A stretch of DNA of 64,000 nt, taken from positions 2,106-66,105 of the forward strand of contig CAYOLW010000001.1 in NCBI GenBank assembly GCA_964404925.1, given 5' to 3'. The DNA comes from an uncultured Candidatus Saccharibacteria bacterium. GTDB taxonomy: Bacteria > Patescibacteriota > Minisyncoccia > Phycocordibacterales > UBA9973. Below, one piece after another: positions 10,697 through 54,339 of this stretch (position 1 is its first letter; each line of letters opens with the position of its first letter). The translations under genes were made by a program, and so were the position numbers. The notes below the pieces were generated by a model. It was not told where the DNA came from, did no database searches, and saw only the letters and a list, made by a program, of their open reading frames with translations.

Positions 10697-13600
10697 ATGT
10701 TTAAACTAAAAACAAAAATTTTATTATCTATCGCGCTATTGTTAACAACAATACCTATAACCACCTTAGCAGCTTTATATGTTGAGGTTATACCAGTAAC
10801 ACAAAAAAATTTAACGAGTGCAACATTGGTTGGGGTACTAATGGATGATGCTTTTCCAACAGGTGTAAGTACTGAGTATGTAAAATTTAGATATACCACA
10901 ACATCCAGTACTTCATGTGCAAACATGACAACCGAAACAGCAGTACAAACAATAAATTTAGATTTCCAATTACATGAATTTTATAATTTTCAACAACAAT
11001 TAAATTCACTTACTCCACACACTAAATATTACTTTTGTGCTGTAGCTTCTAGTGAAGCAGATTTTTCTGCAAACGTTCTTTATAGTGGAATAAGAGATTT
11101 CACAACAGAACTGCCTCCAGACTTGGCAGATAATGTTGTGACAGGTACCGCAAGTAATATAACACAAAACGGTGCAACAATATATGGAGAAATTTACAAT
11201 GATCACAGCACTCCTATATTTGGAAAATTTAAATATTCAGAAAATTATTCTGTTAGTTGCGCATCATTACCTAATGCTATAAACACACCAGTTCAACCTC
11301 CTGGTGGTGTTGGTGCATCATTGTCTCTTAATTTTTCACACACGTTAACTAACCTAAAAAGCAGCACCACATACTCTTATTGTGCTGTCGGTGATACTAA
11401 CTCTGATTTTCCAAATGCAATTTATGGAGAGGTTAAAGTATTTACTACGCCACCTTCTGCTTCTGGTAATCCAGAAGATATTGGACCAGTTGATACGCAA
11501 GAATCTACGGAAATGGATGACAATGAAGTTACTTTGCAAGGTAATTATTCAGGGGGGGCACCTGGTTTTGCATATTTTAGATTAACAAGTGCTACTGTGC
11601 CTCCTCTTTTTTGTAATGATATTTATGGTTCAGATATGATTGGTATAACCTCTAATGAACCAGACCCTATTGGGTATACAACTGGCGGAGATTTTTCTGT
11701 ACATGTTAACGGACTTGAACCAGAAACAACATATTTTTATTGTGCTATTGTTTCTAACAATGCGCTAACAACAAAATTAAATAAATTAACCTATAGGCCT
11801 CAAATAAAATATGGATCAGTTAAATCATTTAGAACTTTACCTTGTTTAACTTGTAATATTACACAAGTAACAACACTTGGTTCAAATGTAATTGATTCAC
11901 AAAGCGTCAATTTAAAAGGTTCTTACAGAACAAGCAGGCCTGTAAAAATATATTTTGAGTATAGTAAAGATTTTGATGTAAGTACCCCGCCCACAAGTGG
12001 TAATGTTTGGATTCCAACAAACCCACCAAAACTTGGAGGTTTTAATTCTTATGGTAACTATAATTTTTTACTTACTGGACTTGATAGCAATACTAAATAC
12101 AGTTTCAGAATAGTTGGAGAATTAGCTATTGGTGGTGAAATAATCTACGGATCTACTCTAGACTTTACAACAGATGCTTATGATGGTGTTGACCCTATAA
12201 TAACAGAAGACCCTGTAGATGATGTTCCAGTTGAACCAGGTGGAGAAGGTGGAGGTGATGATAATTGTCCAGCTGGAACAATAGGTATATTTCCTGATTG
12301 TACTGTTGGTGAAATAGGCTGTCCAGCAGGATATGAAGGAGTGCCACCAGATTGTGTTAATCTGGGAGGAGGAAGCGGGGATGATGACGCACCGGTTGTA
12401 GAAGTAACAGCTGATCCAATATTTGTTGATCCCGGACAGTCTTCTACTATAACTTGGACTTCTACTAATGCGACGTCTTGTGTTTTAAACGGATACGACA
12501 TACCAACATCAGGATCTGCTGATACTGGTGCTCTCAATACGAGTAAATCGTATTCAGTAATTTGTACAGGACCGGGTGGAGTTGGTTCTGATAATGCTCA
12601 AGTCTACGTAAACATAACAGGCGGAGGTGGGGGTGGTGACATTATCTGGGTTAAAGCTTTGGCTGCACCAGTTTTTGTCACAACAAACAGTTCCTCTGTT
12701 GTATCATGGCAATCAAGCGGTGCAGAATTTTGTGAATCTGGTGGACATGGAAATGGTACTAGCGGTTCTTTTAACACTGGACCACTTACTAGTTCAATGT
12801 CCTACACAATTTCTTGTAGTGGACAATCTGGCAGTGCAGCAAGCACTGCATACATAGAAACACATGATCCTGTTACTCCACCATCTTGTTTCGCAGTACC
12901 ACAAACCCAGTCACTACAATGTCCTGCTGGACAGGTAGGTCTGATCTTACAATCTCGCAGTTCAACTTGTCCTGATCCAAACGGTTCTCCTGTTTGGTCA
13001 AATTGGGAGACAGTGACCAACTCTTGTCAGAGTTCAAGTGGTGGTCCAACTCCACCATCTTGTTTCGCAGTACCACAAACCCAGTCACTACAATGTCCTG
13101 CTGGACAGGTAGGTCTGATCTTACAATCTCGCAGTTCAACTTGTCCTGATCCAAACGGTTCTCCTGTTTGGTCAAATTGGGAGACAGTGACCAACTCTTG
13201 TCAGAGTTCAAGTGGTGGTCCAACTCCACCATCTTGTTTCGCAGTACCACAAACCCAGTCACTACAATGTCCTGCTGGACAGGTAGGTCTGATCTTACAA
13301 TCTCGCAGTTCAACTTGTCCTGATCCAAACGGTTCTCCTGTTTGGTCAAATTGGGAGACAGTGACCAACTCTTGTCAGAGTTCAAGTGGTGGTCCTGGAG
13401 GACCAGGTAGTGGAGTGTTTCCACCGGGACCAGGTAATCCATGGAGCCCTACTGGACCCGGAGGCCCTGGCGGCCCCAATGGTAATGGCGGTACAAACCC
13501 AACCCTACCACAAGGACCAGATAACGATGGTGATGGACTTGGTAATCCAAACGATGATGATACAGACGGGGACTGGGATCCAAATGGAACAGATACAGAC

Positions 13601-14239
13601 GATGATGGTGATGGGATTCCTGATTTAGTTGATGCGACTCCAAACGGACCTGGAAATTCTGATGATTTAGACGGTAATGGAGTAGGTAATGACAAAGACA
13701 ATGATATTGATGGTGATGGTGTACCCAACTATCTAGACAACGATACTGATGCAGATGGTATTCCAAATGCTACAGATTCAGACGATGATGGTGATGGGAT
13801 TCCTGATTGGCTTGACCCTTTACCAAAAGGTCCACACGGAGATAAGGTTGGAGTTATTTTGGGGGTAGGGGATGAGGCCATACCACCTTCGGACGCAATC
13901 GTTCATTATAACGAAGGTGTAGAGACTGTTTTTGCTAGACAAATCAGAAATCGCAACAAACTTTCAGAGAAGTTAGGATATTCAGGCAGAGGCAACCTAG
14001 AATCATTTGCTCAAAATATGGCTCATACACTCTCTCGATATTACTTTGGTTATGTTGACGAAAGCGGCAAAGAAGTGCGTGTGTCAGTACCTGATGTTTC
14101 AGCATATGAGTTGAGGATTGTTGGCAACAAATTAGCTGTTTATGAATATTATCGAAACAAAATAATAGATATACGAGTGCAAAGCATCCAATTCAAGAGT
14201 AAGAATCCGTACGAATATTATTTCCAGAAAAGGTTTTAG
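10697..14239 (+). CDS. Giant surface protein or adhesin (1180 aa). It has a signal peptide, repeated Ig/FN3-like modules, three identical 58-aa Cys-containing tandem repeats, thrombospondin-type-3-like Ca-binding Asp-rich repeats and a C-terminal globular domain.
   Basis: The signal peptide is LLSIALLLTTIPITTLAA. Recurrent module endings are YYFCAV, YSYCAVGD, YFYCAI and YSFRIV...FTT. The DxDxDGxxDxxD-type repeats are DNDGDGLGNPNDDDTDGDWDPNGTDTDDDGDGIPD and related copies. Confidence 0.6.
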   Translation: MFKLKTKILLSIALLLTTIPITTLAALYVEVIPVTQKNLTSATLVGVLMDDAFPTGVSTEYVKFRYTTTSSTSCANMTTETAVQTINLDFQLHEFYNFQQQLNSLTPHTKYYFCAVASSEADFSANVLYSGIRDFTTELPPDLADNVVTGTASNITQNGATIYGEIYNDHSTPIFGKFKYSENYSVSCASLPNAINTPVQPPGGVGASLSLNFSHTLTNLKSSTTYSYCAVGDTNSDFPNAIYGEVKVFTTPPSASGNPEDIGPVDTQESTEMDDNEVTLQGNYSGGAPGFAYFRLTSATVPPLFCNDIYGSDMIGITSNEPDPIGYTTGGDFSVHVNGLEPETTYFYCAIVSNNALTTKLNKLTYRPQIKYGSVKSFRTLPCLTCNITQVTTLGSNVIDSQSVNLKGSYRTSRPVKIYFEYSKDFDVSTPPTSGNVWIPTNPPKLGGFNSYGNYNFLLTGLDSNTKYSFRIVGELAIGGEIIYGSTLDFTTDAYDGVDPIITEDPVDDVPVEPGGEGGGDDNCPAGTIGIFPDCTVGEIGCPAGYEGVPPDCVNLGGGSGDDDAPVVEVTADPIFVDPGQSSTITWTSTNATSCVLNGYDIPTSGSADTGALNTSKSYSVICTGPGGVGSDNAQVYVNITGGGGGGDIIWVKALAAPVFVTTNSSSVVSWQSSGAEFCESGGHGNGTSGSFNTGPLTSSMSYTISCSGQSGSAASTAYIETHDPVTPPSCFAVPQTQSLQCPAGQVGLILQSRSSTCPDPNGSPVWSNWETVTNSCQSSSGGPTPPSCFAVPQTQSLQCPAGQVGLILQSRSSTCPDPNGSPVWSNWETVTNSCQSSSGGPTPPSCFAVPQTQSLQCPAGQVGLILQSRSSTCPDPNGSPVWSNWETVTNSCQSSSGGPGGPGSGVFPPGPGNPWSPTGPGGPGGPNGNGGTNPTLPQGPDNDGDGLGNPNDDDTDGDWDPNGTDTDDDGDGIPDLVDATPNGPGNSDDLDGNGVGNDKDNDIDGDGVPNYLDNDTDADGIPNATDSDDDGDGIPDWLDPLPKGPHGDKVGVILGVGDEAIPPSDAIVHYNEGVETVFARQIRNRNKLSEKLGYSGRGNLESFAQNMAHTLSRYYFGYVDESGKEVRVSVPDVSAYELRIVGNKLAVYEYYRNKIIDIRVQSIQFKSKNPYEYYFQKRF
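12875..13396 (+). repeat. Perfect 3 x 174-bp in-frame tandem repeat inside the adhesin gene. Each unit encodes ...PPSCFAVPQTQSLQCPAGQVGLILQSRSSTCPDPNGSPVWSNWETVTNSCQSSSGGPT.
   Basis: The unit boundary actccaccatcttg recurs at 12875, 13049 and 13223. The three units are identical at every base I compared. Confidence 0.9.
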
Positions 14240-14313: not shown

Positions 14314-17049
14314 ATGAATTTTTCAAAGAAAAAAATTGGTAGAAAAATAGTGTTGTGGACACTGGTCTTGTACTTTGTATTTTTTCCTATTGCTAACACC
14401 TACGCTCAAAACTCAGGAACAACTGGTACCGTCAACAACAACACATATGCAACCAGTGGCGAAACATTGCTTCTTAATAAAGATTTAAGCACTGTAACCA
14501 ATACAACAGCATCGCTTAGTTTTACCGCTAGTACTACTCGCGAAGACCAATACGAACCTCTTTTAGTCAGAATTTATAAAGATAGCAATTTAAACGATGG
14601 AGATAATTCCGGGGTTTGGGATTATTCTACTAATACTGTACCAGCCGGCGTAGAAGAAGCAGTTTTGTGGCAAACAGCTGTTTTAGCCAGTAATACACCG
14701 GGACAAATAAAAGAAGTTACTTTTAGTTCCCTGGAACCAAACACTAATTACTTTGTTGTTGCTTATTTGTATAATGTTAATAAAATTGGTCTGCCATTTT
14801 TCTCTGGAGATTGGGATACTTTAATTACGGTAAATCTAACACTGACAACAGCCAAGGCTGTGGATACACTAGGTACTGTTAATAGTGTGGGTGGATCTAA
14901 TTATCACAATGACCCAGGTCCGGATTTAGGATGTTCTCCTTTATTTTTTGCTACACTAAAAAATTGTTTAGGTGCATTGTTTTACTACGTACTCTATGAA
15001 CCAGCAGCAGCCTTGGCACGACTTGCAGCGCACTTCTTGGACTTCTTTGTTTACTATGCAACTAATAGTGATTCATATAGATCAGAATTCGTACTAAAAG
15101 CTTGGGGGGTTGTAAGAGACGTTTCTAATATGTTTTTCATTGTGGCGCTTATGGTTTTAGCAATACGGATGATACTCGATATAGACAAGGCTCACGTTAA
15201 AAAAACATTGTCTGTCATAATACTAGTAGCACTAGTTATTAACTTTAGTTTATTTATTACTCGAGTGGTTATTGATGCTTCAAACATTCTAGCTAAAGTT
15301 TTCTACAACAACATTTCTTCTGTGGATGCATATGGTAACCCAACAGTTGGTGAAAGTGGAGAAAAATCTATAACCATAGGACTAACTAAGGTCATAGACC
15401 CAGTTAAAATAGTCAATAAACCACAAGACAACCTGAAGAACTTTATTTTTGTGGTATTTCTTTGTTTCTTCCTTATGCTTGGAATGGCATGGATATTCTT
15501 TACCAGCGCTTTGTTTTTCGTAGGGCGGGTAATATCACTATGGTTCTCAATGATTTTTGCGCCACTGGCCTTTATATCATACGCAGTGCCATTTAAAATA
15601 CCTGAATATGGACACACCGAATGGTGGAGTGGTTTATTCAAGGCTGCCTTTATGGCGCCATTGTTTGTATTTTTCTTGTATATAACAGCTTTGTTTGGTG
15701 GTACACTCGGCGCAATACCAGGAGACATTGCAAATGCAGACGATTGGTTTATGTCAGTAGTAGGGGAACTTGTACCATTCATACTTATATTCGGATTATT
15801 AAAAGCAGCTCAAAAAATAGCTAAAGAATATTCAGGTAAATTTGGCGATATGGTAAGTAAAACTGGTGCTGTATTGGGTACATTGGCCCTCGGCGGTGCA
15901 GGACTCGCAACCGCTGCTTTAGGTAGAAAATTCATAGGTTCACAAATTGCTAAAGGTTCACAAAGTCAGAAAGCAATGGATTGGGCGGGGCATAGAATGA
16001 AGTTTGATGAACAACTTAATCAATGGAAGGCCTCAAGCAAAAAAACTCGTGGAGCTAAACCAACCTGGGACCAATATTCTAAGAGTAATGGTGTTGATAG
16101 AAATAATATGGGCTTACGCGAAAGACTGGGAGCTCGTGCTAATTATTCTAAACTAAAAGTTAAGAGTGTTGAGCATGCTCGCCACGAACTTGAAGAAACA
16201 AAGAAGAAGCTTGGTTATGAAGGGGTTAATAACAATCAACTAGGTGGACAAGCTCAAAAAGATATTAAAGATCAATTCTTAAAAGACCATAAGTCAGAGT
16301 TTGAGAACTCAGTTAGGAACGGTAACGAGGTTCTGGTTGTTAATGTAAACGGAATAGACACTATTGTAAAAGGCCAAAATGAATACGAGGCAACCATGCG
16401 AAAAGTACTAAGTAAAGAAGTTTTGGGTGATGGCGATAAGACAAAAGAAGCTGAAGCAATTAAAGACGGTGATGCCATGTATAAACGTGTTGATAAAATA
16501 GACCCTGCAACAGGCCAAGTAATGAAAGACTCTCGTGGAAGGAAACTCACCGAAGATAAACTAGTATTAACTGATCAGGGTAGGAAGAAGGTAGAAAATA
16601 GACTGCATACAAGCTACAACAAAGAGGTTGGTGAGAAGGTCAAGAAAATGTCTGAAGTTAAGTATGAACATCTAGAAACAGAAGCAAAAATGAAATTAGG
16701 GGTTAAAGACAGACTGTCTGCTAGATCTGATGTTGGTACATATGACACCAGGAATCTGTCTCAGATAATTACCAAAATGTCTGCCAAAGATAAAATGTGG
16801 ATGGGAGGTATCCTTGGGTTAATGGTTGGAGGCATACGTGGCGGATTTAAGTCATTAAAACTAGACATGGGCAAAGGCCAAGGCGATTGGAAAAAGGACC
16901 TCGGTAGTACTATTACAGAAGCCTTGAAGAAGGCACCATCTGATTTTAAAGTTAATGTCAATCTAAGTGGTGGAGGAGGTGGAGGGGGAGGACATGGTGG
17001 CGGCGGCGATCATGGCGGTGGACACGGGGGAGGACATGGAGGACACTAA
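14314..17049 (+). CDS. Polytopic membrane protein (911 aa) with a secreted N-domain, a multi-TM core, a long charged cytoplasmic tail and a Gly/His-rich C-terminus. The topology is VirB6/TrbL/TcpH/PrgH-like.
   Basis: A signal/anchor sequence is followed by at least six hydrophobic helices between about aa 200 and 520. The protein sits two genes upstream of VirB4. The C-terminus is GGGGGGGHGGGGDHGGGHGGGHGGH. Confidence 0.45.
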   Translation: MNFSKKKIGRKIVLWTLVLYFVFFPIANTYAQNSGTTGTVNNNTYATSGETLLLNKDLSTVTNTTASLSFTASTTREDQYEPLLVRIYKDSNLNDGDNSGVWDYSTNTVPAGVEEAVLWQTAVLASNTPGQIKEVTFSSLEPNTNYFVVAYLYNVNKIGLPFFSGDWDTLITVNLTLTTAKAVDTLGTVNSVGGSNYHNDPGPDLGCSPLFFATLKNCLGALFYYVLYEPAAALARLAAHFLDFFVYYATNSDSYRSEFVLKAWGVVRDVSNMFFIVALMVLAIRMILDIDKAHVKKTLSVIILVALVINFSLFITRVVIDASNILAKVFYNNISSVDAYGNPTVGESGEKSITIGLTKVIDPVKIVNKPQDNLKNFIFVVFLCFFLMLGMAWIFFTSALFFVGRVISLWFSMIFAPLAFISYAVPFKIPEYGHTEWWSGLFKAAFMAPLFVFFLYITALFGGTLGAIPGDIANADDWFMSVVGELVPFILIFGLLKAAQKIAKEYSGKFGDMVSKTGAVLGTLALGGAGLATAALGRKFIGSQIAKGSQSQKAMDWAGHRMKFDEQLNQWKASSKKTRGAKPTWDQYSKSNGVDRNNMGLRERLGARANYSKLKVKSVEHARHELEETKKKLGYEGVNNNQLGGQAQKDIKDQFLKDHKSEFENSVRNGNEVLVVNVNGIDTIVKGQNEYEATMRKVLSKEVLGDGDKTKEAEAIKDGDAMYKRVDKIDPATGQVMKDSRGRKLTEDKLVLTDQGRKKVENRLHTSYNKEVGEKVKKMSEVKYEHLETEAKMKLGVKDRLSARSDVGTYDTRNLSQIITKMSAKDKMWMGGILGLMVGGIRGGFKSLKLDMGKGQGDWKKDLGSTITEALKKAPSDFKVNVNLSGGGGGGGGHGGGGDHGGGHGGGHGGH

Positions 17050-43330: not shown

Positions 43331-43403
43331 TGTGCGCCCAGCAGGAATCGAACCTGCGACCATCTCCTTAAAAGGGAGCTGCTCTACCAGCTGAGCTATG
43401 GGC
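43331..43403 (-). tRNA. tRNA-Lys (anticodon UUU).
   Basis: Manual fold gives acceptor GCGCCCA/UGGGCGC, a D-arm GCUC-AGCUGGUAGA-GAGC, an anticodon stem GCUCC/GGAGA with loop CUUUUAA, and a T-arm GCAGG-UUCGAUU-CCUGC. The sequence closely resembles E. coli tRNA-Lys. Confidence 0.85.
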
Positions 43404-43427
43404 GCGTAGTGTGATAATATAGTAAAC

Positions 43428-46279: not shown

Positions 46280-48910
46280 ATGAAAGATAAAAAATCAGAC
46301 AAACACGAATCTATAATTATTCGCGGAGCCAGGACACACAATCTGCGTAATATTGATGTGGAGATGCCCCGTAACAAAATGACGGTTATTACTGGTGTTT
46401 CAGGTTCTGGTAAATCTTCTCTTGCTTTTGACACAGTGTTTGCTGAGGGGCAGAGGAGGTATGTGGAATCACTTTCTTCATATGCTCGACAGTTTTTAAA
46501 CCAAATGCCCAAACCAGATGTGGACGAGATTACCGGACTTTCTCCAGCCATATCAATTGATCAAAAATCCAGGTCTAACAACCCTCGTTCAACAGTAGCA
46601 ACCATTACTGAAATCTACGACTACCTGCGTGTGATGTACGCCCGCATTGGGCACCCGCACTGTCCAGAGTGTGGTGAAGAAATCAAGAAACTGTCTAATG
46701 AAGAAATATTAAATTTTGTTTTAGATAAAGTTAATAGTTTCAGTAAGGCAAAAAAGGGCACCAAAAAAGTTCTAGATGTAGAGTGGAATGAAACTGAAAT
46801 AAGTATTTATGCACCTGTGGTCCGTGGACGTAAAGGGGAGTACTATCAGCTTTTATATGATTTGCTTGGTAAGGGTTTTACTCAAATACGATTAGATGGT
46901 GAGATAAAAAACTTGCGTGAACAAATAACCTTATCAAAAAACAAAGCCCACACCATTGAAGTTTTGGTTGATCACTTTGCATTGCATGAATTTATCGACA
47001 ATAAAGACACAGCCAAGACACGTCTGGCTGAAGCCTTGGAACGTGCCTTATTAGAATCTGACGGGTTAGTAAACATTAAAGTAAGCGATGAAGAGTTTCT
47101 AATGTCAGCTAAATTTGCTTGTAAAAATGATGGTTTTTCCTTTCCAGAAGTTGAACCAAGACTTTTCTCATTTAATTCACCGTATGGTGCCTGCCCAACA
47201 TGTAATGGACTTGGAACGAAATACTTTGGTGGGTTAGACCCATGTGATGATTGTCAGGGTGCACGACTAAGAAAAGAAGCGTTACATGTATTCTTGAGGT
47301 CGGATTCCCGAGGTTCGACCTCGGGAGGGGTAAATATTTTAGATTTAGCAAATCTCTCTGTTGCTGAGGCTTATGCTTTTTTTAAAAATTTAAAATTATC
47401 CGACAAAGAAAAAGAAATATCGCTACCGGTAGTTAGAGAAATAACTGACCGAATCAAATTCATGCTTGATGTAGGGCTCGACTACTTGCAACTTTCTCGT
47501 AAGGCCAACACCCTCTCCGGCGGGGAAGCACAGCGTATCAGGCTTGCTTCACAATTGGGCTCACGGCTCGTAGGTGCATTGTATGTGCTCGACGAGCCAA
47601 CGATTGGATTACACCAGCGGGATAATGATAGACTTATTAAAACATTGCTTGATTTGAGAGATTTAGGAAATACTATTTTAGTTGTTGAACATGATGAAGA
47701 CACTATCTATGCATCAGACTATATTGTGGATATTGGGCCTAAGGCTGGTGTGCATGGAGGGAATGTGGTTGTGTCTGGATATCTAGAAGATTTATTGACT
47801 GCTAAAAAGAACACCAGTGGATCACGTACCTTATCTTATTTGAGAGAAGAAACCAGAATAGAGATTCCTGAAAAGCGTCGTGATGCTAAAGGATGGCTCA
47901 AAATAGTTGGTGGAAAGGTTTTTAATATAGACAATATTAATGTTGAAATACCGCTAGGAGTAATGACTTGCATAACTGGAGTTTCAGGTAGTGGTAAGAG
48001 CTCTTTTATGTATGAAATTTTACACAAGAACCTGCAAGCTAGGTATGAAAGGAAATACCGTACAGCGGAAGTTTTTAACTGTTCTTCTTTTACTGGAACC
48101 GAGTATCTATCCAGAACTGTTCTGATAGATCAGTCACCAATTGGAAGAACACCTAGATCTAATATAGCTACTTATACCGGTACTTTTACGCACATCCGGG
48201 ATTTGTTTGCTGAGACCGAAGAATCAAAGTTCCGTGGTTGGAAGTCCAATAGATTTTCTTTTAATGTTAAAGGTGGTCGCTGTGAAGCTTGTGAAGGTAA
48301 TGGTGAGATAGCTGTTGAAATGCACTTTTTGCCAACAGTCTATGTAACCTGTGATGTATGCGGTGGAAAAAGATTTGATAAAGAAACACTGACAGTCAAA
48401 TATAAAAAGAAAAATATTTATGAAGTTTTGCGAATGACGGTAGAAGAAGGACTTGAATTCTTTAAGGATATTCCAGCTGTATATGATAGATTAGCTACAT
48501 TGATTGATGTTGGTTTAGGTTATCTAGAACTGGGTCAATCTGCCACAACCCTCTCCGGCGGGGAAGCACAGCGCGTAAAAATATCGAGTGAACTTTTTGA
48601 ATACCGAATGTCCCACCTACGTTCAGAGAAGACTATTTATTTATTGGACGAACCAACTGTAGGGTTACACTACGATGATGTAGCCAAACTACTAGAAGTA
48701 TTACAAAAGCTGGTTACCAAAGGAAACGCAGTTGTTTTAATTGAACATAATTTAGATATAATAAAAAGTGCTGATTATTTAATTGATTTTGGTCCCGAAG
48801 GTGGTACTGGTGGTGGTAATGTGGTTGCTCGTGGCACCCCAGAAGAGGTGGCTAATTCTCCTAAGAGTCATACAGGTAAATATTTGAAGAAAGTTTTACG
48901 CAAAAAATAA
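46280..48910 (+). CDS. uvrA: Excinuclease ABC subunit A.
   Basis: Two ABC modules are present: Walker A GVSGSGKSS twice, and signature LSGGEAQR twice. Zinc-finger cysteines are CPECGEE and CEACEG...CDVCGG. Confidence 0.95.
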   Translation: MKDKKSDKHESIIIRGARTHNLRNIDVEMPRNKMTVITGVSGSGKSSLAFDTVFAEGQRRYVESLSSYARQFLNQMPKPDVDEITGLSPAISIDQKSRSNNPRSTVATITEIYDYLRVMYARIGHPHCPECGEEIKKLSNEEILNFVLDKVNSFSKAKKGTKKVLDVEWNETEISIYAPVVRGRKGEYYQLLYDLLGKGFTQIRLDGEIKNLREQITLSKNKAHTIEVLVDHFALHEFIDNKDTAKTRLAEALERALLESDGLVNIKVSDEEFLMSAKFACKNDGFSFPEVEPRLFSFNSPYGACPTCNGLGTKYFGGLDPCDDCQGARLRKEALHVFLRSDSRGSTSGGVNILDLANLSVAEAYAFFKNLKLSDKEKEISLPVVREITDRIKFMLDVGLDYLQLSRKANTLSGGEAQRIRLASQLGSRLVGALYVLDEPTIGLHQRDNDRLIKTLLDLRDLGNTILVVEHDEDTIYASDYIVDIGPKAGVHGGNVVVSGYLEDLLTAKKNTSGSRTLSYLREETRIEIPEKRRDAKGWLKIVGGKVFNIDNINVEIPLGVMTCITGVSGSGKSSFMYEILHKNLQARYERKYRTAEVFNCSSFTGTEYLSRTVLIDQSPIGRTPRSNIATYTGTFTHIRDLFAETEESKFRGWKSNRFSFNVKGGRCEACEGNGEIAVEMHFLPTVYVTCDVCGGKRFDKETLTVKYKKKNIYEVLRMTVEEGLEFFKDIPAVYDRLATLIDVGLGYLELGQSATTLSGGEAQRVKISSELFEYRMSHLRSEKTIYLLDEPTVGLHYDDVAKLLEVLQKLVTKGNAVVLIEHNLDIIKSADYLIDFGPEGGTGGGNVVARGTPEEVANSPKSHTGKYLKKVLRKK
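47297..47327 (+). repeat. GC-rich palindromic in-frame element within uvrA, encoding ...RSDSRGSTSGG....
   Basis: The sequence is gaggtcggattcccgaggttcgacctcgggag, with arms cccgagg/cctcggg and gaggtcg/cgacctc. Its core matches the uvrC copies. Confidence 0.5.
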
Positions 48911-50203
48911 ATGAAACTAGAAAGTTTTAAAAAATTAAATTTACCGGAAAAACCAGGGGTTTATTTTTTCTTGGGTTATGAAAAATCGGGGTTGAACCCC
49001 GGGAATTCTAGGGGTTCAACCCCTGAAATATCTGGAAACGTACTTTACATCGGCAAGGCAACCAGTTTGCGTGACCGAGTTCGGAGTTATTTTTCTAAAG
49101 ATCTTATTGAAACTCGCGGTCCACTTTTAGTGGATATGGTTTGGAAGGCTACTGACATTAAATGGCAGGAAACAGAAAGTGTACTCGAAGCCCTAATCCT
49201 TGAAGCTAATTTAATAAAGAAACATCAGCCGTATTACAATACCAAAGAAAAAGACGACAAAAGCTTTAATTATGTTTGTATTACTTCTGAAAAAAGAATA
49301 CGTGTTATAAGAGGTAAGGATTTAAAACAAACAAAAGAAAAGTTCAAAAATACATTTGGTCCATATACTAACGGAGGACAACTGCGTGAAGCGTTAAAAA
49401 TAATTCGAAAGTTCTTCCCATTCATAGAAGACCGAAAGGGAACTAAAGGCAAAGAAGAATTTTACCGTCAGATAAAATTGATGCCCGAGAACATGAAAGA
49501 CAACACTAAAAATATTCGTAATATAATTTACTTCTTTGAAGGTAAGAAGAAAAAGATTATTAGCGGGCTAGTTCGAGAAATGAAGTCTTTGGCTAAAACA
49601 AAAAAATTTGAAGAAGCAAATGAAATAAAGAAAAAGATTTTTGCCCTAAATCATATTAATGACATTGCTTTGATTAAAAACGACTTGGCGGGCGGGAAGA
49701 GGTTGGACCTCGGGGGTTCTAGAGGTCCAACCTCAAAGAGCCATCAAACATTTCGTATTGAAGCCTATGATATAGCCCATATGGCTGGCAGGAACATGGT
49801 GGGCGTAATGACAGTGGTGGAAAATGGAGAAATAAATAAAAGAGAGTATAAGAAATTTAAAATCAAAACCCAATCTAATGCTAACGACACAGGTGCACTA
49901 ACCGAGGTATTGGAGAGGAGGTTTGGCCACCTTGAGTGGCAATTACCTAATCTGATTGTGGTTGATGGCGGAAAAGCTCAGATAAATTTTGCCGAGAAGG
50001 TTCTACAAAGAATGAATATACAAATACCAATAGTATCTGTCTTGAAAGACGAAAGGCATAGACCCAAAAACATTTTAGGTGACAAAGATTTAGCTAGAAA
50101 GTATGAGAGAGAAATACTACTGGCCAATGCTGAGGCTCACAGGTTCTCTATTGGTTATCATAAACAAATGCGGAATAAAAACTTTTTACCCAATGCAAAG
50201 TAA
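48911..50203 (+). CDS. uvrC: Excinuclease ABC subunit C (short form, 430 aa). It has a GIY-YIG nuclease and a UvrC middle/RNase H-like domain. The C-terminal HhH region appears absent.
   Basis: The GIY-YIG region is PGVYFFLGY...VLYIGKATSLRDRVRSYF, interrupted by a ~14-aa insertion. The gene directly follows uvrA. Confidence 0.8.
   Translation: MKLESFKKLNLPEKPGVYFFLGYEKSGLNPGNSRGSTPEISGNVLYIGKATSLRDRVRSYFSKDLIETRGPLLVDMVWKATDIKWQETESVLEALILEANLIKKHQPYYNTKEKDDKSFNYVCITSEKRIRVIRGKDLKQTKEKFKNTFGPYTNGGQLREALKIIRKFFPFIEDRKGTKGKEEFYRQIKLMPENMKDNTKNIRNIIYFFEGKKKKIISGLVREMKSLAKTKKFEEANEIKKKIFALNHINDIALIKNDLAGGKRLDLGGSRGPTSKSHQTFRIEAYDIAHMAGRNMVGVMTVVENGEINKREYKKFKIKTQSNANDTGALTEVLERRFGHLEWQLPNLIVVDGGKAQINFAEKVLQRMNIQIPIVSVLKDERHRPKNILGDKDLARKYEREILLANAEAHRFSIGYHKQMRNKNFLPNAK
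48988..49023 (+). repeat. GC-rich palindromic in-frame element within the uvrC GIY-YIG motif, encoding SGLNPGNSRGSTPE.
   Basis: The arms ggggttgaacccc and ggggttcaacccc are exact reverse complements, and the loop is gggaattcta. Confidence 0.6.
49699..49734 (+). repeat. Second GC-rich palindromic in-frame element within uvrC, encoding LDLGGSRGPTSK.
   Basis: The arms gaggttggacctc and gaggtccaacctc are exact reverse complements. The loop gggggttcta is nearly identical to the loop of the first uvrC copy. Confidence 0.6.
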
Positions 50204-50669
50204 ACAAAATATTTTAATATTAAACGACATTCGTGGAGCTGAAAATGTGGGTGCTATGTTTCGCACCGCTGATGCAGCCGGGGTCCATAAAATTTATTTG
50301 GTTGGCTATACGCCAACACCTATCGATAGATTTGGACGCAAACAAAAGTCTATAGCTAAGACAGCCCTGGGTGCTGAAGATTATATACCCTGGGAACAGG
50401 TAAAAAGTATAAATACACTTATTAATAAACTCCACAAAAACGGTTTCCAAATTATTGCCATAGAACAAGATGAAAATTCAGTAAATTACAAAAAAGTAAA
50501 ATTGAAAGACAAGAACGCTATAATAATGGGTAGCGAGGTAGATGGTGTAGCTAAAAATGTTTTAGCTAAATGTGACGTGATTGCCGAGATACCCATGCAA
50601 GGTAAAAAAGAGTCCTTGAACGTTTCTGTGGCTTGTGGGGTGGCGTTATACGGTTTATTGGGTAAATAG
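50193..50669 (+). CDS. SpoU/TrmH-family RNA 2'-O-methyltransferase (TrmL-like, about 158 aa).
   Basis: I prefer the start at 50193 (MQSKQNILIL), because the listed 50103 start overlaps uvrC. The protein has the SPOUT motifs NVGAMFRTADAAG, IMGSEVDGV and the C-terminal ESLNVSVACGVALY. Confidence 0.75.
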   Translation: MQSKQNILILNDIRGAENVGAMFRTADAAGVHKIYLVGYTPTPIDRFGRKQKSIAKTALGAEDYIPWEQVKSINTLINKLHKNGFQIIAIEQDENSVNYKKVKLKDKNAIIMGSEVDGVAKNVLAKCDVIAEIPMQGKKESLNVSVACGVALYGLLGK

Positions 50670-54264: not shown

Positions 54265-54339
54265 GCCCTCGTAGTTTAATGGATAGAATGCGAGCTTGCG
54301 GAGTTTGCGATCCAGGTTCGATTCCTGGCGAGGGCACCA
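54265..54339 (+). tRNA. tRNA-Arg (anticodon GCG by manual fold), with CCA encoded.
   Basis: The acceptor is GCCCUCG/CGAGGGC with discriminator A and CCA. The D-loop is UAAUGGAUAG. The anticodon stem CGAGC/GUUUG has two G-U pairs, and the loop UUGCGGA gives anticodon G34-C35-G36. The T-arm is CCAGG-UUCGAUU-CCUGG. Confidence 0.7.

Follow-up and report, generated by a model that had tools for sequence, protein, structure and literature searches.

A decayed member of a dispersed family of 36-nt palindromic elements lies in frame within uvrA of a Patescibacteria genome

Palindromic elements in uvrA and uvrC

The DNA analyzed here (the window) is a 64,000-nt stretch from an uncultured Candidatus Saccharibacteria bacterium of the Patescibacteriota. 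It holds three related palindromic elements, all of them intragenic (3/3): a remnant in uvrA and two intact copies in uvrC (Table 1). The uvrA product matches UvrA entries in the PDB with E-values down to 1e-302, and the 120 Paceibacteria UvrA orthologues we collected are 80-88% identical to it. The 32-nt sequence GAGGTCGGATTCCCGAGGTTCGACCTCGGGAG occurs once in the window, at 47296-47327 inside uvrA, and translates in the uvrA frame as LRSDSRGSTSGG. A first-pass annotation had reported an element at 47297-47327; the element is indeed present and its true start is one nucleotide earlier.

Table 1. Palindromic elements, their parts and their host genes in the window
Feature	Position	Strand	Size or sequence	Remarks
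uvrA CDS	46280..48910	+	876 aa	host gene of the remnant; ORF list and translation
uvrA element remnant	47296..47322	+	27 nt, 9 codons, in frame	encodes RSDSRGSTS; truncated arm 1 (GAGGTCG/GA), loop remnant TTCCC, intact arm 2
uvrA remnant arm 2	47310..47322	+	GAGGTTCGACCTC	perfect fit to consensus GRGGTYSRACCYC
Residual perfect palindrome	47306..47326	+	TCCCGAGGT-TCG-ACCTCGGGA	hairpin scan; folds on both strands
uvrC CDS	48911..50203	+	430 aa	UvrC_RNaseH_dom; hosts both intact copies
uvrC copy 1, intact	48988..49023	+	GGGGTTGAACCCC-GGGAATTCTA-GGGGTTCAACCCC	GIY-YIG beta-hairpin loop (GVYFFL...ILYIGK)
uvrC copy 2, intact long form	49691..49742	+	ggcgggaa-GAGGTTGGACCTC-GGGGGTTCTA-GAGGTCCAACCTC-aaagagcc	linker preceding RNase H-like domain
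uvrC copy 2, 36-nt core	49699-49734	+		
Predicted peptides spanning inserts			LRSDSRGSTSGG, KRLDLGGSRGPTSK	

Only the first 7-9 nt of arm 1 are left in the uvrA remnant, and its spacing is 9 nt shorter than in the family form; the 9 nt lost span the junction of arm and loop, from the 3' part of arm 1 to the first bases of the loop, and the reading frame is kept. A residual 9-bp hairpin is made up of the loop remnant, arm 2 and the downstream flank. The sense-strand RNA of the remnant has a predicted fold of −21.1 kcal/mol (z = −2.6), and the two uvrC copies have predicted folds of −28.7 and −32.1 kcal/mol (z about −5.5). The long form of uvrC copy 2 has GGC/GCC closing pairs, and its 8-nt flanks recur at three other sites (L002 uvrA, L003 uvrC and JAG uvrC).

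Several observations tie the uvrA site to the uvrC copies, a kinship that the first-pass annotation had proposed. A motif scan for GRGGTYSRACCYC returned five perfect matches in the 64 kb, these being arm 2 of the uvrA remnant and the four uvrC arms, and nothing elsewhere. The three elements share one orientation and, as had also been noted, one relative frame, each starting at codon position 3. The same three sites are the only GC-rich perfect hairpins with a stem of at least 8 bp in the window, where Markov simulations expect 0.4. When a covariance model trained solely on copies from other genomes was run on the 64 kb, it scored the uvrC copies at 46-52 bits (copy 1 at 46-48, copy 2 at 52; E about 1e-11 and 5e-10) and recognized the uvrA remnant as the third-ranked site at 17-18 bits (rough E about 0.01-0.03); the fourth-ranked site reached only 9.5 bits (E = 2.2). 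The peptide core SRGST, which the annotation had extended to both uvrC copies, is found in copy 1, whereas copy 2 reads SRGPT. The three copies carry three different arm variants, and homogenization is not evident in this genome.

Insertion into a variable loop of UvrA

The 27 nt at 47296-47322 are inserted in frame into a surface loop of UvrA whose length is hypervariable and, as the first-pass annotation had supposed, do not encode a conserved loop. HMMER alignment to the solved UvrA 9gxk places a 9-residue gap exactly at FLRSDSRGS, and the closest orthologues (86-88% identity) lack the insert and read FLTNNKKKVNIL at this site. Across the 120 orthologues, NVFL and NILDL are separated by anything between 6 and more than 40 amino acids. 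The insert comes directly after the zinc module's second Cys pair, and UvrA residues 344-348 are predicted as coil with pLDDT below 50; by this model, the loop carrying the remnant is probably disordered.

A full-length 36-nt element occupies the same UvrA site in seven loci (L063, L013, L001, L002, L069, L148 and L111), the L063 copy being QRSDLKGARGPTSGG. L187 also has an intact copy at this site, all eight of these copies are in the same codon phase as the remnant, and the site holds the long-form or the short-form element depending on the genome. Compared with L001, the site in the window is shorter by three codons (GAGGTCGGA[CCTCAAGAA]TTCCCGAGG). The uvrA stretch belongs to a dispersed family of 36-nt palindromes and has decayed. 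The annotation's description of it as truncated and degenerate is borne out by the intact orthologous copies elsewhere; its suggestion that the copy is older is not. The uvrA copy probably has no role in UvrA function, and such inserts should not be annotated as functional UvrA or UvrC motifs.

The element family in Patescibacteria

The family element is 36 nt long and consists of a 13-nt arm, a 10-nt loop and a complementary 13-nt arm (GAGGT-NNN-ACCTC). The general arm form is GRGGT-NNN-ACCYC with arms that are mutually reverse-complementary, a form to which both uvrC copies conform fully; arms start with GAGG, GGGG or AAGG. Each arm is itself palindromic (GAGGTC-S-GACCTC), and positions 2 and 12 within the arm covary in 98 of 99 perfect copies.

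A scan of 185,579 species genomes yielded 62 stretches, about 50 of them in Patescibacteria, and a metagenome scan gave at least 120 matches. Copies keep the reading frame of their hosts and are found in each of the three phases and in either orientation. Their hosts include repair and other DNA proteins (UvrA/B/C/D, RecJ, RecG, PolA, TopA, XerC, ComEC), proteins of translation and RNA metabolism (Leu-, Ile-, Val- and Cys-tRNA synthetases, Tgt, TsaD, CCA-adding enzyme, RNase J), and SecA, enolase, iPGM, a P-type ATPase and GT4. Inside ORFs of at least 200 aa, uvrABC account for 10 of the 34 genome-scan matches, and among the in-ORF metagenome matches listed they account for 8 of 57. The corresponding share is 3/3 in the window and 12/12 in nine uvr-containing loci. 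The excess in uvrABC is 20- to 30-fold, which random insertion combined with tolerance would not predict and which is in that respect a point against a copying element. Copy number is low: the window has 3 in its 64 kb, and by the strict scan a genome has a handful, unlike typical proliferating MITEs or REPs; this too speaks against copying. Both the breadth of the family in Patescibacteria and its uvr bias go beyond what the first-pass annotation had proposed. No published description of a 36-nt Patescibacteria element family was found in the literature searched.

Gain, loss and decay of copies

Clean pairs of filled and empty alleles between close relatives were found at five sites: UvrA-340, UvrB-227, UvrC-25, UvrC-262 and UvrC-410. 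In addition, the site of uvrC copy 1 is empty in L001, L013, L063, L039, L148 and L111. At the UvrA site, carriers make up 6 of the 120 orthologues, their nearest neighbors are empty, and six Fitch steps are required. We read these patterns as gain and loss of copies. Target-site duplications are not evident in the filled and empty alleles, at sites that are hypervariable and with element boundaries that are not sharply defined. Decay is visible at UvrC-262 of JAG, where LGDIGQGTRGASNNS corresponds to RLDLGGSRGPTSKS in the window.

The sequence of the copies carries a second set of signatures. Arms are complementary at 13/13 positions in 99 of 128 unique copies, where 6% would be expected, and 7 of 13 pairs have double-sided changes, a value reached in none of 500 shuffles. 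In a codon alignment of the UvrA site from seven genomes the arms are 99% identical, compared with 77% for flanking codons and 46% (saturated) for third positions. Near-perfect arm conservation of this kind could equally reflect purifying selection for function, which would count against a copying element. All three copies in L187 have the compensated variant AAGGTCGAACCTT/AAGGTTCGACCTT, and JAG has one and the same 36-mer at two of its sites, as does L062 with a 36-mer at two of its own. Finally, orthologous sites differ by an in-place inversion of the loop in two comparisons (L090 vs L030, L129 vs L162).

Two further cases at the UvrA site were set aside. L002 and L188, whose proteins are 99.4% identical, might have represented a very recent insertion; this is ruled out by their uvrA DNA, in which identity is 100% until about 200 nt ahead of the element and falls to about 88% after it, as in a mosaic or an assembly chimera. 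A second insert type at the same site (RSHSVLEGQ...SEDSS, P0047/L186) was considered as a long palindrome and has no perfect hairpin.

Possible explanations for the family

Taken together, arm complementarity, compensatory changes, the 99% identity of arms against saturated flanks, within-genome likeness and loop inversion lead us to favor copying: the family is probably a palindromic insertion element, selfish or semi-selfish, that is actively copied or converted at the DNA level. Propagation and homogenization would both take place on DNA, whether by a putative enzyme that copies and inserts the element, by gene conversion between copies, or by homologous recombination that transfers it with flanking gene segments. 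Copies would survive only in places that can take up 12-17 additional hydrophilic residues, namely the linkers and surface loops of conserved proteins of large size. Translation is assumed here, in that the ribosome would read through each copy and the insert would become part of the protein. Perfect copies would then be young or lately converted, and those that are not renewed would decay by deletion and substitution, a state that the uvrA copy may represent. We identified no transposase or other mobilizing enzyme in the 64 kb of this genome or in the short flanks of the others; this counts against copying, as do the three different arm variants of the window and the filled and empty alleles in which no target-site duplication is evident.

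A copying element of this sort would bear on more than one question. Ultra-compact genomes may repeatedly accommodate in-frame repeat DNA inside proteins, the family would explain part of the puzzling length variation in housekeeping proteins of the Candidate Phyla Radiation (CPR), and the element could be used as a marker of recombination and gene flow in uncultured lineages. The contrast between arms at 99% identity and saturated synonymous sites, together with the uvrABC excess, raises the questions of how the element is copied and why repair genes are targeted.

A different DNA-level reading is that the element is a double-stranded recognition site, such as a pair of 13-bp palindromic half-operators, a 13-spacer-13 recombinase site of the lox/FRT type, or an uptake or recombination signal favoring exchange of genome-maintenance genes. 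The palindromic arms with their covarying positions 2 and 12, the symmetry at the DNA level and the apparent recombination mosaic of L002 and L188 inside uvrA are all consistent with it, as is the 13-10-13 layout, which resembles recombinase core sites; those of loxP and FRT are 13-8-13. We nevertheless regard this reading as unlikely. This one genome has three arm sequences and hence no single recognition sequence, known uptake sequences are more abundant by orders of magnitude, there is no known cognate protein, and many genomes have empty sites. We give just as little weight to a version of it in which the 13-10-13 palindromes would be a signal under selection or directed conversion that preferentially colonizes nucleotide-excision-repair genes, acting as a recombination- or uptake-type site or as the target of a recombinase or nuclease. 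If that version were true, the signal would help Patescibacteria, as competent scavengers of nucleotides, to exchange or renew their uvrABC alleles, and in-frame placement would be the price paid by genomes with almost no intergenic space.

The hairpins might instead act in mRNA as cis-elements for stability, RNase access or translational pausing, co-regulating uvrA, uvrB, uvrC and other nucleic-acid enzymes, with in-frame coding as a side constraint. Very stable predicted folds (−29 to −32 kcal/mol, z about −5.5), compensatory changes that preserve pairing, arms far more conserved than synonymous sites in the flanks, and clustering of copies in uvr genes would fit such a role. The pairing itself argues otherwise. 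Variable positions hold 445 Watson-Crick pairs against 4 G-T pairs on the sense strand and 6 A-C pairs, equivalent to G-T on the other strand, so that the G-U wobble that RNA tolerates is nearly absent; wobble pairs do not exceed the mismatch background, and their near-absence without strand asymmetry argues against RNA-specific selection. Moreover, the element occurs in both orientations, its loop flips in place, it is patchy among close relatives, decayed copies exist and no Rfam family matches it. We therefore consider an mRNA element decidedly improbable.

It is more doubtful still that the element is an ancient, vertically inherited insertion that only decays, with perfect copies merely less decayed than the rest. 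The same sites are filled in several lineages and both the uvrA copy of the window and UvrC-262 of JAG are visibly decayed, as one would expect, but the reading is contradicted by the 99% identity of the arms against third positions saturated at 46%, by variants specific to a genome and common to all its copies (L187), by scattered carriers with empty nearest neighbors, and by long and short forms at one UvrA site. It is hardly credible that the stretch is a GC-rich palindrome by chance, or a variable loop of native origin that arose by local duplication or template switching and is unrelated to the uvrC elements: the UvrA loop region is hypervariable regardless and the E-value of the uvrA copy under the family model is modest, but the 64 kb have no GC-rich hairpins other than those at the three sites, arm 2 matches the consensus arm perfectly, and seven other loci have intact elements at this very site.

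Several known sequence classes were also considered as identities. Despite the T-arm-like GGTTCGA, Rfam and tRNA models give no match at the elements, and the only two tRNAs of the window (43333-43405 and 54265-54336) lie away from them. A 36-nt CRISPR repeat is ruled out, as these are single in-frame copies within conserved genes and form no array, and a phage origin was rejected, a scan of IMG/VR giving no match. For a LexA/SOS operator we found no supporting evidence in the sources available. A recurrent short-ORF context (flivgayfEVQPQDVPRLNLF) was considered as an RNA gene, and Rfam gives none.

Comparison with known repeats

The Patescibacteria element is best read as comparable to the Rickettsia palindromic elements (RPEs), yet much smaller. 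RPEs are dispersed palindromic repeats in frame within unrelated housekeeping genes of a reduced genome, translated at tolerated positions (PMC10969869). Both are palindromic, dispersed over many loci and in frame in ORFs. RPEs of Rickettsia measure about 100-150 bp and form ten families with tens of copies per genome, whereas the present element, at 36 nt (52 with flanks) and few copies per genome, is set apart by length and host; the near-perfect conservation of its arms, the likeness of copies within a genome and the bias to uvrABC distinguish it further. To our knowledge, in-frame selfish palindromes are textbook matter for Rickettsia only, and the present family would add a smaller one of lox-like shape across the CPR.

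REPs are GC-rich imperfect palindromes of 20-40 nt that form stem-loops and for which copying on DNA has been proposed (PMC3733652, PMC3184786). Our element is likewise a short GC-rich palindrome in that size range, forming a stem-loop. REPs, however, are extragenic and high-copy, with a GTAG or CGTC head tetranucleotide and a Y1 HUH transposase (RAYT), whereas our element is mostly intragenic, in frame and low-copy and has no such head. MITEs are short non-autonomous inverted-repeat DNAs that can create in-frame fusions (PMC10969869). Our element is also short inverted-repeat DNA in frame; it differs in being smaller than a typical MITE, the whole of it is one hairpin, and we saw no target-site duplication or terminal inverted repeats around a distinct core.

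Palindromes in coding sequence are also known from mitochondria: perfect inverted repeats lie in translated genes of the compact AT-rich genomes of Nematomorpha (PMC6649704), and repetitive hairpin-forming elements occur likewise within coding genes of sponges (PMC2800124). The Patescibacteria element shares with these its perfect inverted repeats and its position inside translated genes of compact AT-rich genomes. Nematomorpha arms, of up to 284 bp, encode conserved protein regions, whereas ours are inserted in loops that vary, and one short sequence is found again in genes that are unrelated.

Lastly, the DNA uptake sequences DUS and USS are short motifs tolerated in certain reading frames within genes and often paired as inverted repeats, with a reported bias towards genome-maintenance genes (discussed in PMC2817400). 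Our element resembles them in being short, genic and inverted-repeat and in its genome-maintenance bias; the DUS/USS unit is 9-12 nt long. In genomes with uptake sequences there is about one in every kb, and each species uses a single fixed sequence, whereas the element studied here is present about three times per 64 kb and its arms are variable.

An element remnant in uvrA

The first-pass annotation had described a segment of uvrA as related to the palindromes in the adjoining uvrC gene, with arm 1 truncated, and perhaps an older or degenerate copy. The string that it quoted occurs once in the window, starting one base earlier than it had placed it, and is conspicuous because its G+C content is 63% in a window of about 37%. 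Solved UvrA structures align to the ORF with E values down to 1e-302, and 120 orthologues carry the labels Paceibacteria, Nomurabacteria or Patescibacteria; both identify it as UvrA.

Coordinates of features in the window
Feature	Position	Strand	Description
uvrA ORF	46280-48910	+	876 aa; solved-structure alignment and orthologues
Segment in uvrA	47296-47327		63% G+C
Remnant palindrome in uvrA	47306-47326		9 bp
Arm-consensus match in uvrA	47310-47322		perfect
uvrC	48911-50203		adjoins uvrA; holds two perfect 36-nt palindromes
uvrC palindrome 1	48988-49023		GGGGTTGAACCCC-GGGAATTCTA-GGGGTTCAACCCC
uvrC palindrome 2	49699-49734		GAGGTTGGACCTC-GGGGGTTCTA-GAGGTCCAACCTC
Long-form element	49691-49742		flanks ggcgggaa...aaagagcc
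SpoU methylase ORF	50103-50669		from first ATG
1180-aa ORF	10697-14239		G+C locally up to 45% (12000-14000)
Tail of 911-aa ORF	16972-17044		GC-rich

Kinship with the uvrC elements is supported by three results. The arm consensus GRGGTYSRACCYC is matched perfectly at five places in the 64 kb, namely the four uvrC arms and one site in uvrA; all three elements start at codon position 3 in identical orientation; and a covariance model trained on 94 copies from outside the window scored the uvrC copies at 46-52 bits (E 1e-11 to 5e-10) and the uvrA copy at 17-18 bits (E about 0.01-0.03) in a search of the whole window. The next match there reached 9.5 bits, giving no fourth element, and a blind scan for GC-rich perfect hairpins with stems of at least 8 bp returned only these three sites, against 0.4 expected.

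A HMMER alignment places a 9-residue gap in the solved UvrA 9gxk exactly opposite FLRSDSRGS of the window protein. Among the 120 orthologues, the stretch from NVFL to NILDL ranges from 6 residues (e.g. TDKNKK) to more than 40, and AlphaFold, in a model of moderate quality (mean pLDDT 66), gives residues 344-348 as coil with pLDDT below 50. The segment is therefore an insertion rather than a conserved UvrA loop. The closest relatives (86-88% identity) have FLTNNKKKVNIL at this loop.

Intact copies of the form GAGGTCGGACCTC-N10-GAGGTCCGACCTC occupy the same UvrA site and phase in loci of other Paceibacteria (L001, L002/L003, L013, L063, L069, L148 and L111), and locus L187 has the variant AAGGTCGAACCTT...AAGGTTCGACCTT there. 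Codon alignment to the intact copies confirms the truncation, with three codons missing from the window (agg tcg gaT --- --- --- tcc cga ggt tcg acc tcg); the matching L001 sequence, with the lost part in inner brackets, is GAGGTCGGA[CCTCAAGAA]TTCCCGAGG. The deletion, which leaves the frame intact, takes the last part of arm 1 and the first part of the loop. The remnant still forms a 9-bp DNA palindrome and, as RNA, a 16-bp hairpin that includes G-U pairs (-21.1 kcal/mol, z = -2.6).

Elsewhere in this UvrA, residues 313 to 319 align to 304 to 425 of 9gxk, and the insertion domain of about 120 residues that would separate the two Cys pairs of its zinc module is absent; judged by their lengths, the Paceibacteria orthologues probably lack it as well. 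Counted from its first ATG, the SpoU methylase ORF begins about 100 nt before the 3' end of uvrC; its real start probably lies further downstream.

Gain, loss and arm symmetry

The window and its closest relative, JAGOSH010000001 (loci L012 and L021), differ cleanly at the insertion sites. At UvrA-340 the window has a decayed copy and the relative none; UvrB-227 and UvrC-410 are empty in the first and filled in the second; UvrC-262 is perfect in the first and heavily decayed in the second; and UvrC-25 is filled in both, with four coordinated differences per arm. Six carriers among the 120 UvrA orthologues need six parsimony steps. Copies within a genome are alike in several cases: identical 36-mers stand at two sites in JAGOSH010000001 and likewise in L062, both L001 copies have the same loop, and one compensated variant is common to all three L187 copies. 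Four different sites carry the long-form element (peptide GGKRSDLKGSRGPTSKS), the one in the window among them.

Of 128 unique copies, 99 have perfectly complementary arms; independent variation of the arms would give 6%. Double-sided changes affect 7 of 13 pairs, a value reached in 0 of 500 shuffles; that alignment holds mainly low-GC loci and well-paired copies, and the complementarity count is the unbiased figure. Variable pairs comprise 445 Watson-Crick, 4 G-T and 6 A-C, so wobbles are almost absent and symmetric between strands, which points to DNA-level symmetry over RNA selection. At the UvrA site in seven genomes, identity is 99% over the 26 arm bases and 76% over the loops; in the flanking codons it is 77% overall and 46% at third positions.

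Taken together, these results and the loop inversion described below lead us to reject a palindrome that arose by chance and likewise a neutral relic of purely vertical descent. These dynamics require either ongoing copying or conversion or else nucleotide-level selection. We favour, with reasonable though far from full confidence, a palindromic insertion element that would be spread by copying or conversion at the DNA level, through an enzyme and target rules that we infer, and that would be tolerated in surface loops and presumably translated there; the uvrA copy would be a functionless, decaying remnant.

The 10-nt loop AAGGGAGCCC of one genome appears as its reverse complement GGGCTCCCTT in another at orthologous sites with unchanged arms (L090 versus L030/L130 in a methyltransferase; L129 versus L162 in ComEC), which, read from the sequences, is in-place inversion of the loop or of the whole element. 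The apparently empty UvrC-25 of L001, matching window position 48986 (atg aga ggt cgg aag att), holds GAGGTCGG, which equals the opening 8 nt of the arm and is perhaps the deletion footprint of a lost copy. Positions 1-3290 of L002 are 100% identical to L188 across uvrB and the first ~830 nt of uvrA and about 88% identical over the remainder of uvrA; either recombination has produced a mosaic or the metagenome assembly is chimeric.

Distribution and host genes

When one genome for each species was scanned by pattern (596 Gb in all), 62 stretches emerged, about 50 of them in Patescibacteria of many classes and the remainder mostly in GC-rich genomes; metagenomes gave at least 120 matches and the viral sequences scanned gave none. 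Most copies lie within long ORFs; each of the three phases and both orientations are represented. Hosts named by BLAST or Pfam act in DNA repair, recombination and replication (UvrA, UvrB, UvrC, UvrD/PcrA, RecJ, RecG, PolA, TopA, XerC/D, ComEC), are tRNA or RNA enzymes (Leu-, Ile/Val- and Cys-tRNA synthetases, Tgt, TsaD, CCA-adding enzyme, RNase J) or have other roles (SecA, enolase, iPGM, P-type ATPase, GT4 glycosyltransferase, TPR protein, methyltransferase).

The uvr genes are strongly over-represented (window; L001, L012, L021, L062, L187, L188), and at least eight separate sites are spread over the three genes. The window copies are all in uvrA or uvrC (3 of 3), two genes that together cover 6% of the 64 kb, and uvrABC hold 10 of 34 in-ORF matches in the gene-blind genome scan and 8 of 57 in the metagenome scan (among the matches listed), a binomial P near 1e-11 if uvrABC are taken, by estimate, as about 1% of such genomes. 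In nine loci where polA, fpg, ruvA and other genes are present as well, 12 of 12 copies are in uvrABC, a count partly ascertained because several of these loci were chosen for carrying the element. Recurrence extends to recJ, recG, uvrD, polA, topA, xerC and comEC. The bias could reflect unusual tolerance of loop insertions by Uvr proteins, easier transfer between lineages by homologous recombination because uvr genes are exceptionally conserved (UvrA identity is 80-88% among the 120 orthologues listed, with an apparent mosaic in uvrA), or a real functional link.

The variant GAGGTTCAACCTC-AAGATGTCCC-GAGGTTGAACCTC recurs in nine loci (L075, L079, L088, L119, L155, L165, L180, L182, L185) in a conserved context with short ORFs only (flivgayfEVQPQDVPRLNLFakedrcvs), which matches no Rfam family.

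Comparison with known repeats

The closest analogue is the Rickettsia palindromic element, which in a reduced genome is likewise inserted in frame into genes unrelated to one another (PMC10969869). The element described here is shorter by a factor of four, low-copy and from another phylum, and shows strong arm conservation and host-gene bias. Unlike REP sequences, it is neither extragenic nor high-copy and lacks a GTAG or CGTC head, and no MITE-type target-site duplication is evident. Coding palindromes of Nematomorpha mitochondria (PMC6649704) share its perfect inverted repeats and presumed translation but not its dispersed-repeat nature. The full-text literature, as far as its incomplete coverage reaches, contains no description of such elements in CPR bacteria, and an earlier one may exist.

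Other inserts and window features

In other Paceibacteria the same variable uvr loops carry further families of GC-rich palindromic in-frame inserts, for example CCCTCTCCTTAATAAGGAGAGGG, CTCCCCCTTAACAAGGGGGAG and CCCCTCCTT-AATC-AAGGAGGGG, at sites in L063 uvrC (HPDPLLNKER), L148 uvrB and uvrC, and L186 (4772-4793, 4840-4860 and 9058-9116). A second recurrent insert in the same UvrA loop, ...LR(R/H)SHSVL(E/K)...SEDSS..., is found in L069 and five UvrA orthologues (P0002, P0047, P0106, P0118, P0119); its counterpart in L186 has no perfect palindrome. In the window, a 911-aa ORF with a Gly/His-rich, GC-rich tail and no Pfam match lies beside the 1180-aa ORF, whose sole Pfam match is a purple-acid-phosphatase N-terminal domain. 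The sequence GTGGTCCAACTCC occurs twice, at 13041 and 13215.
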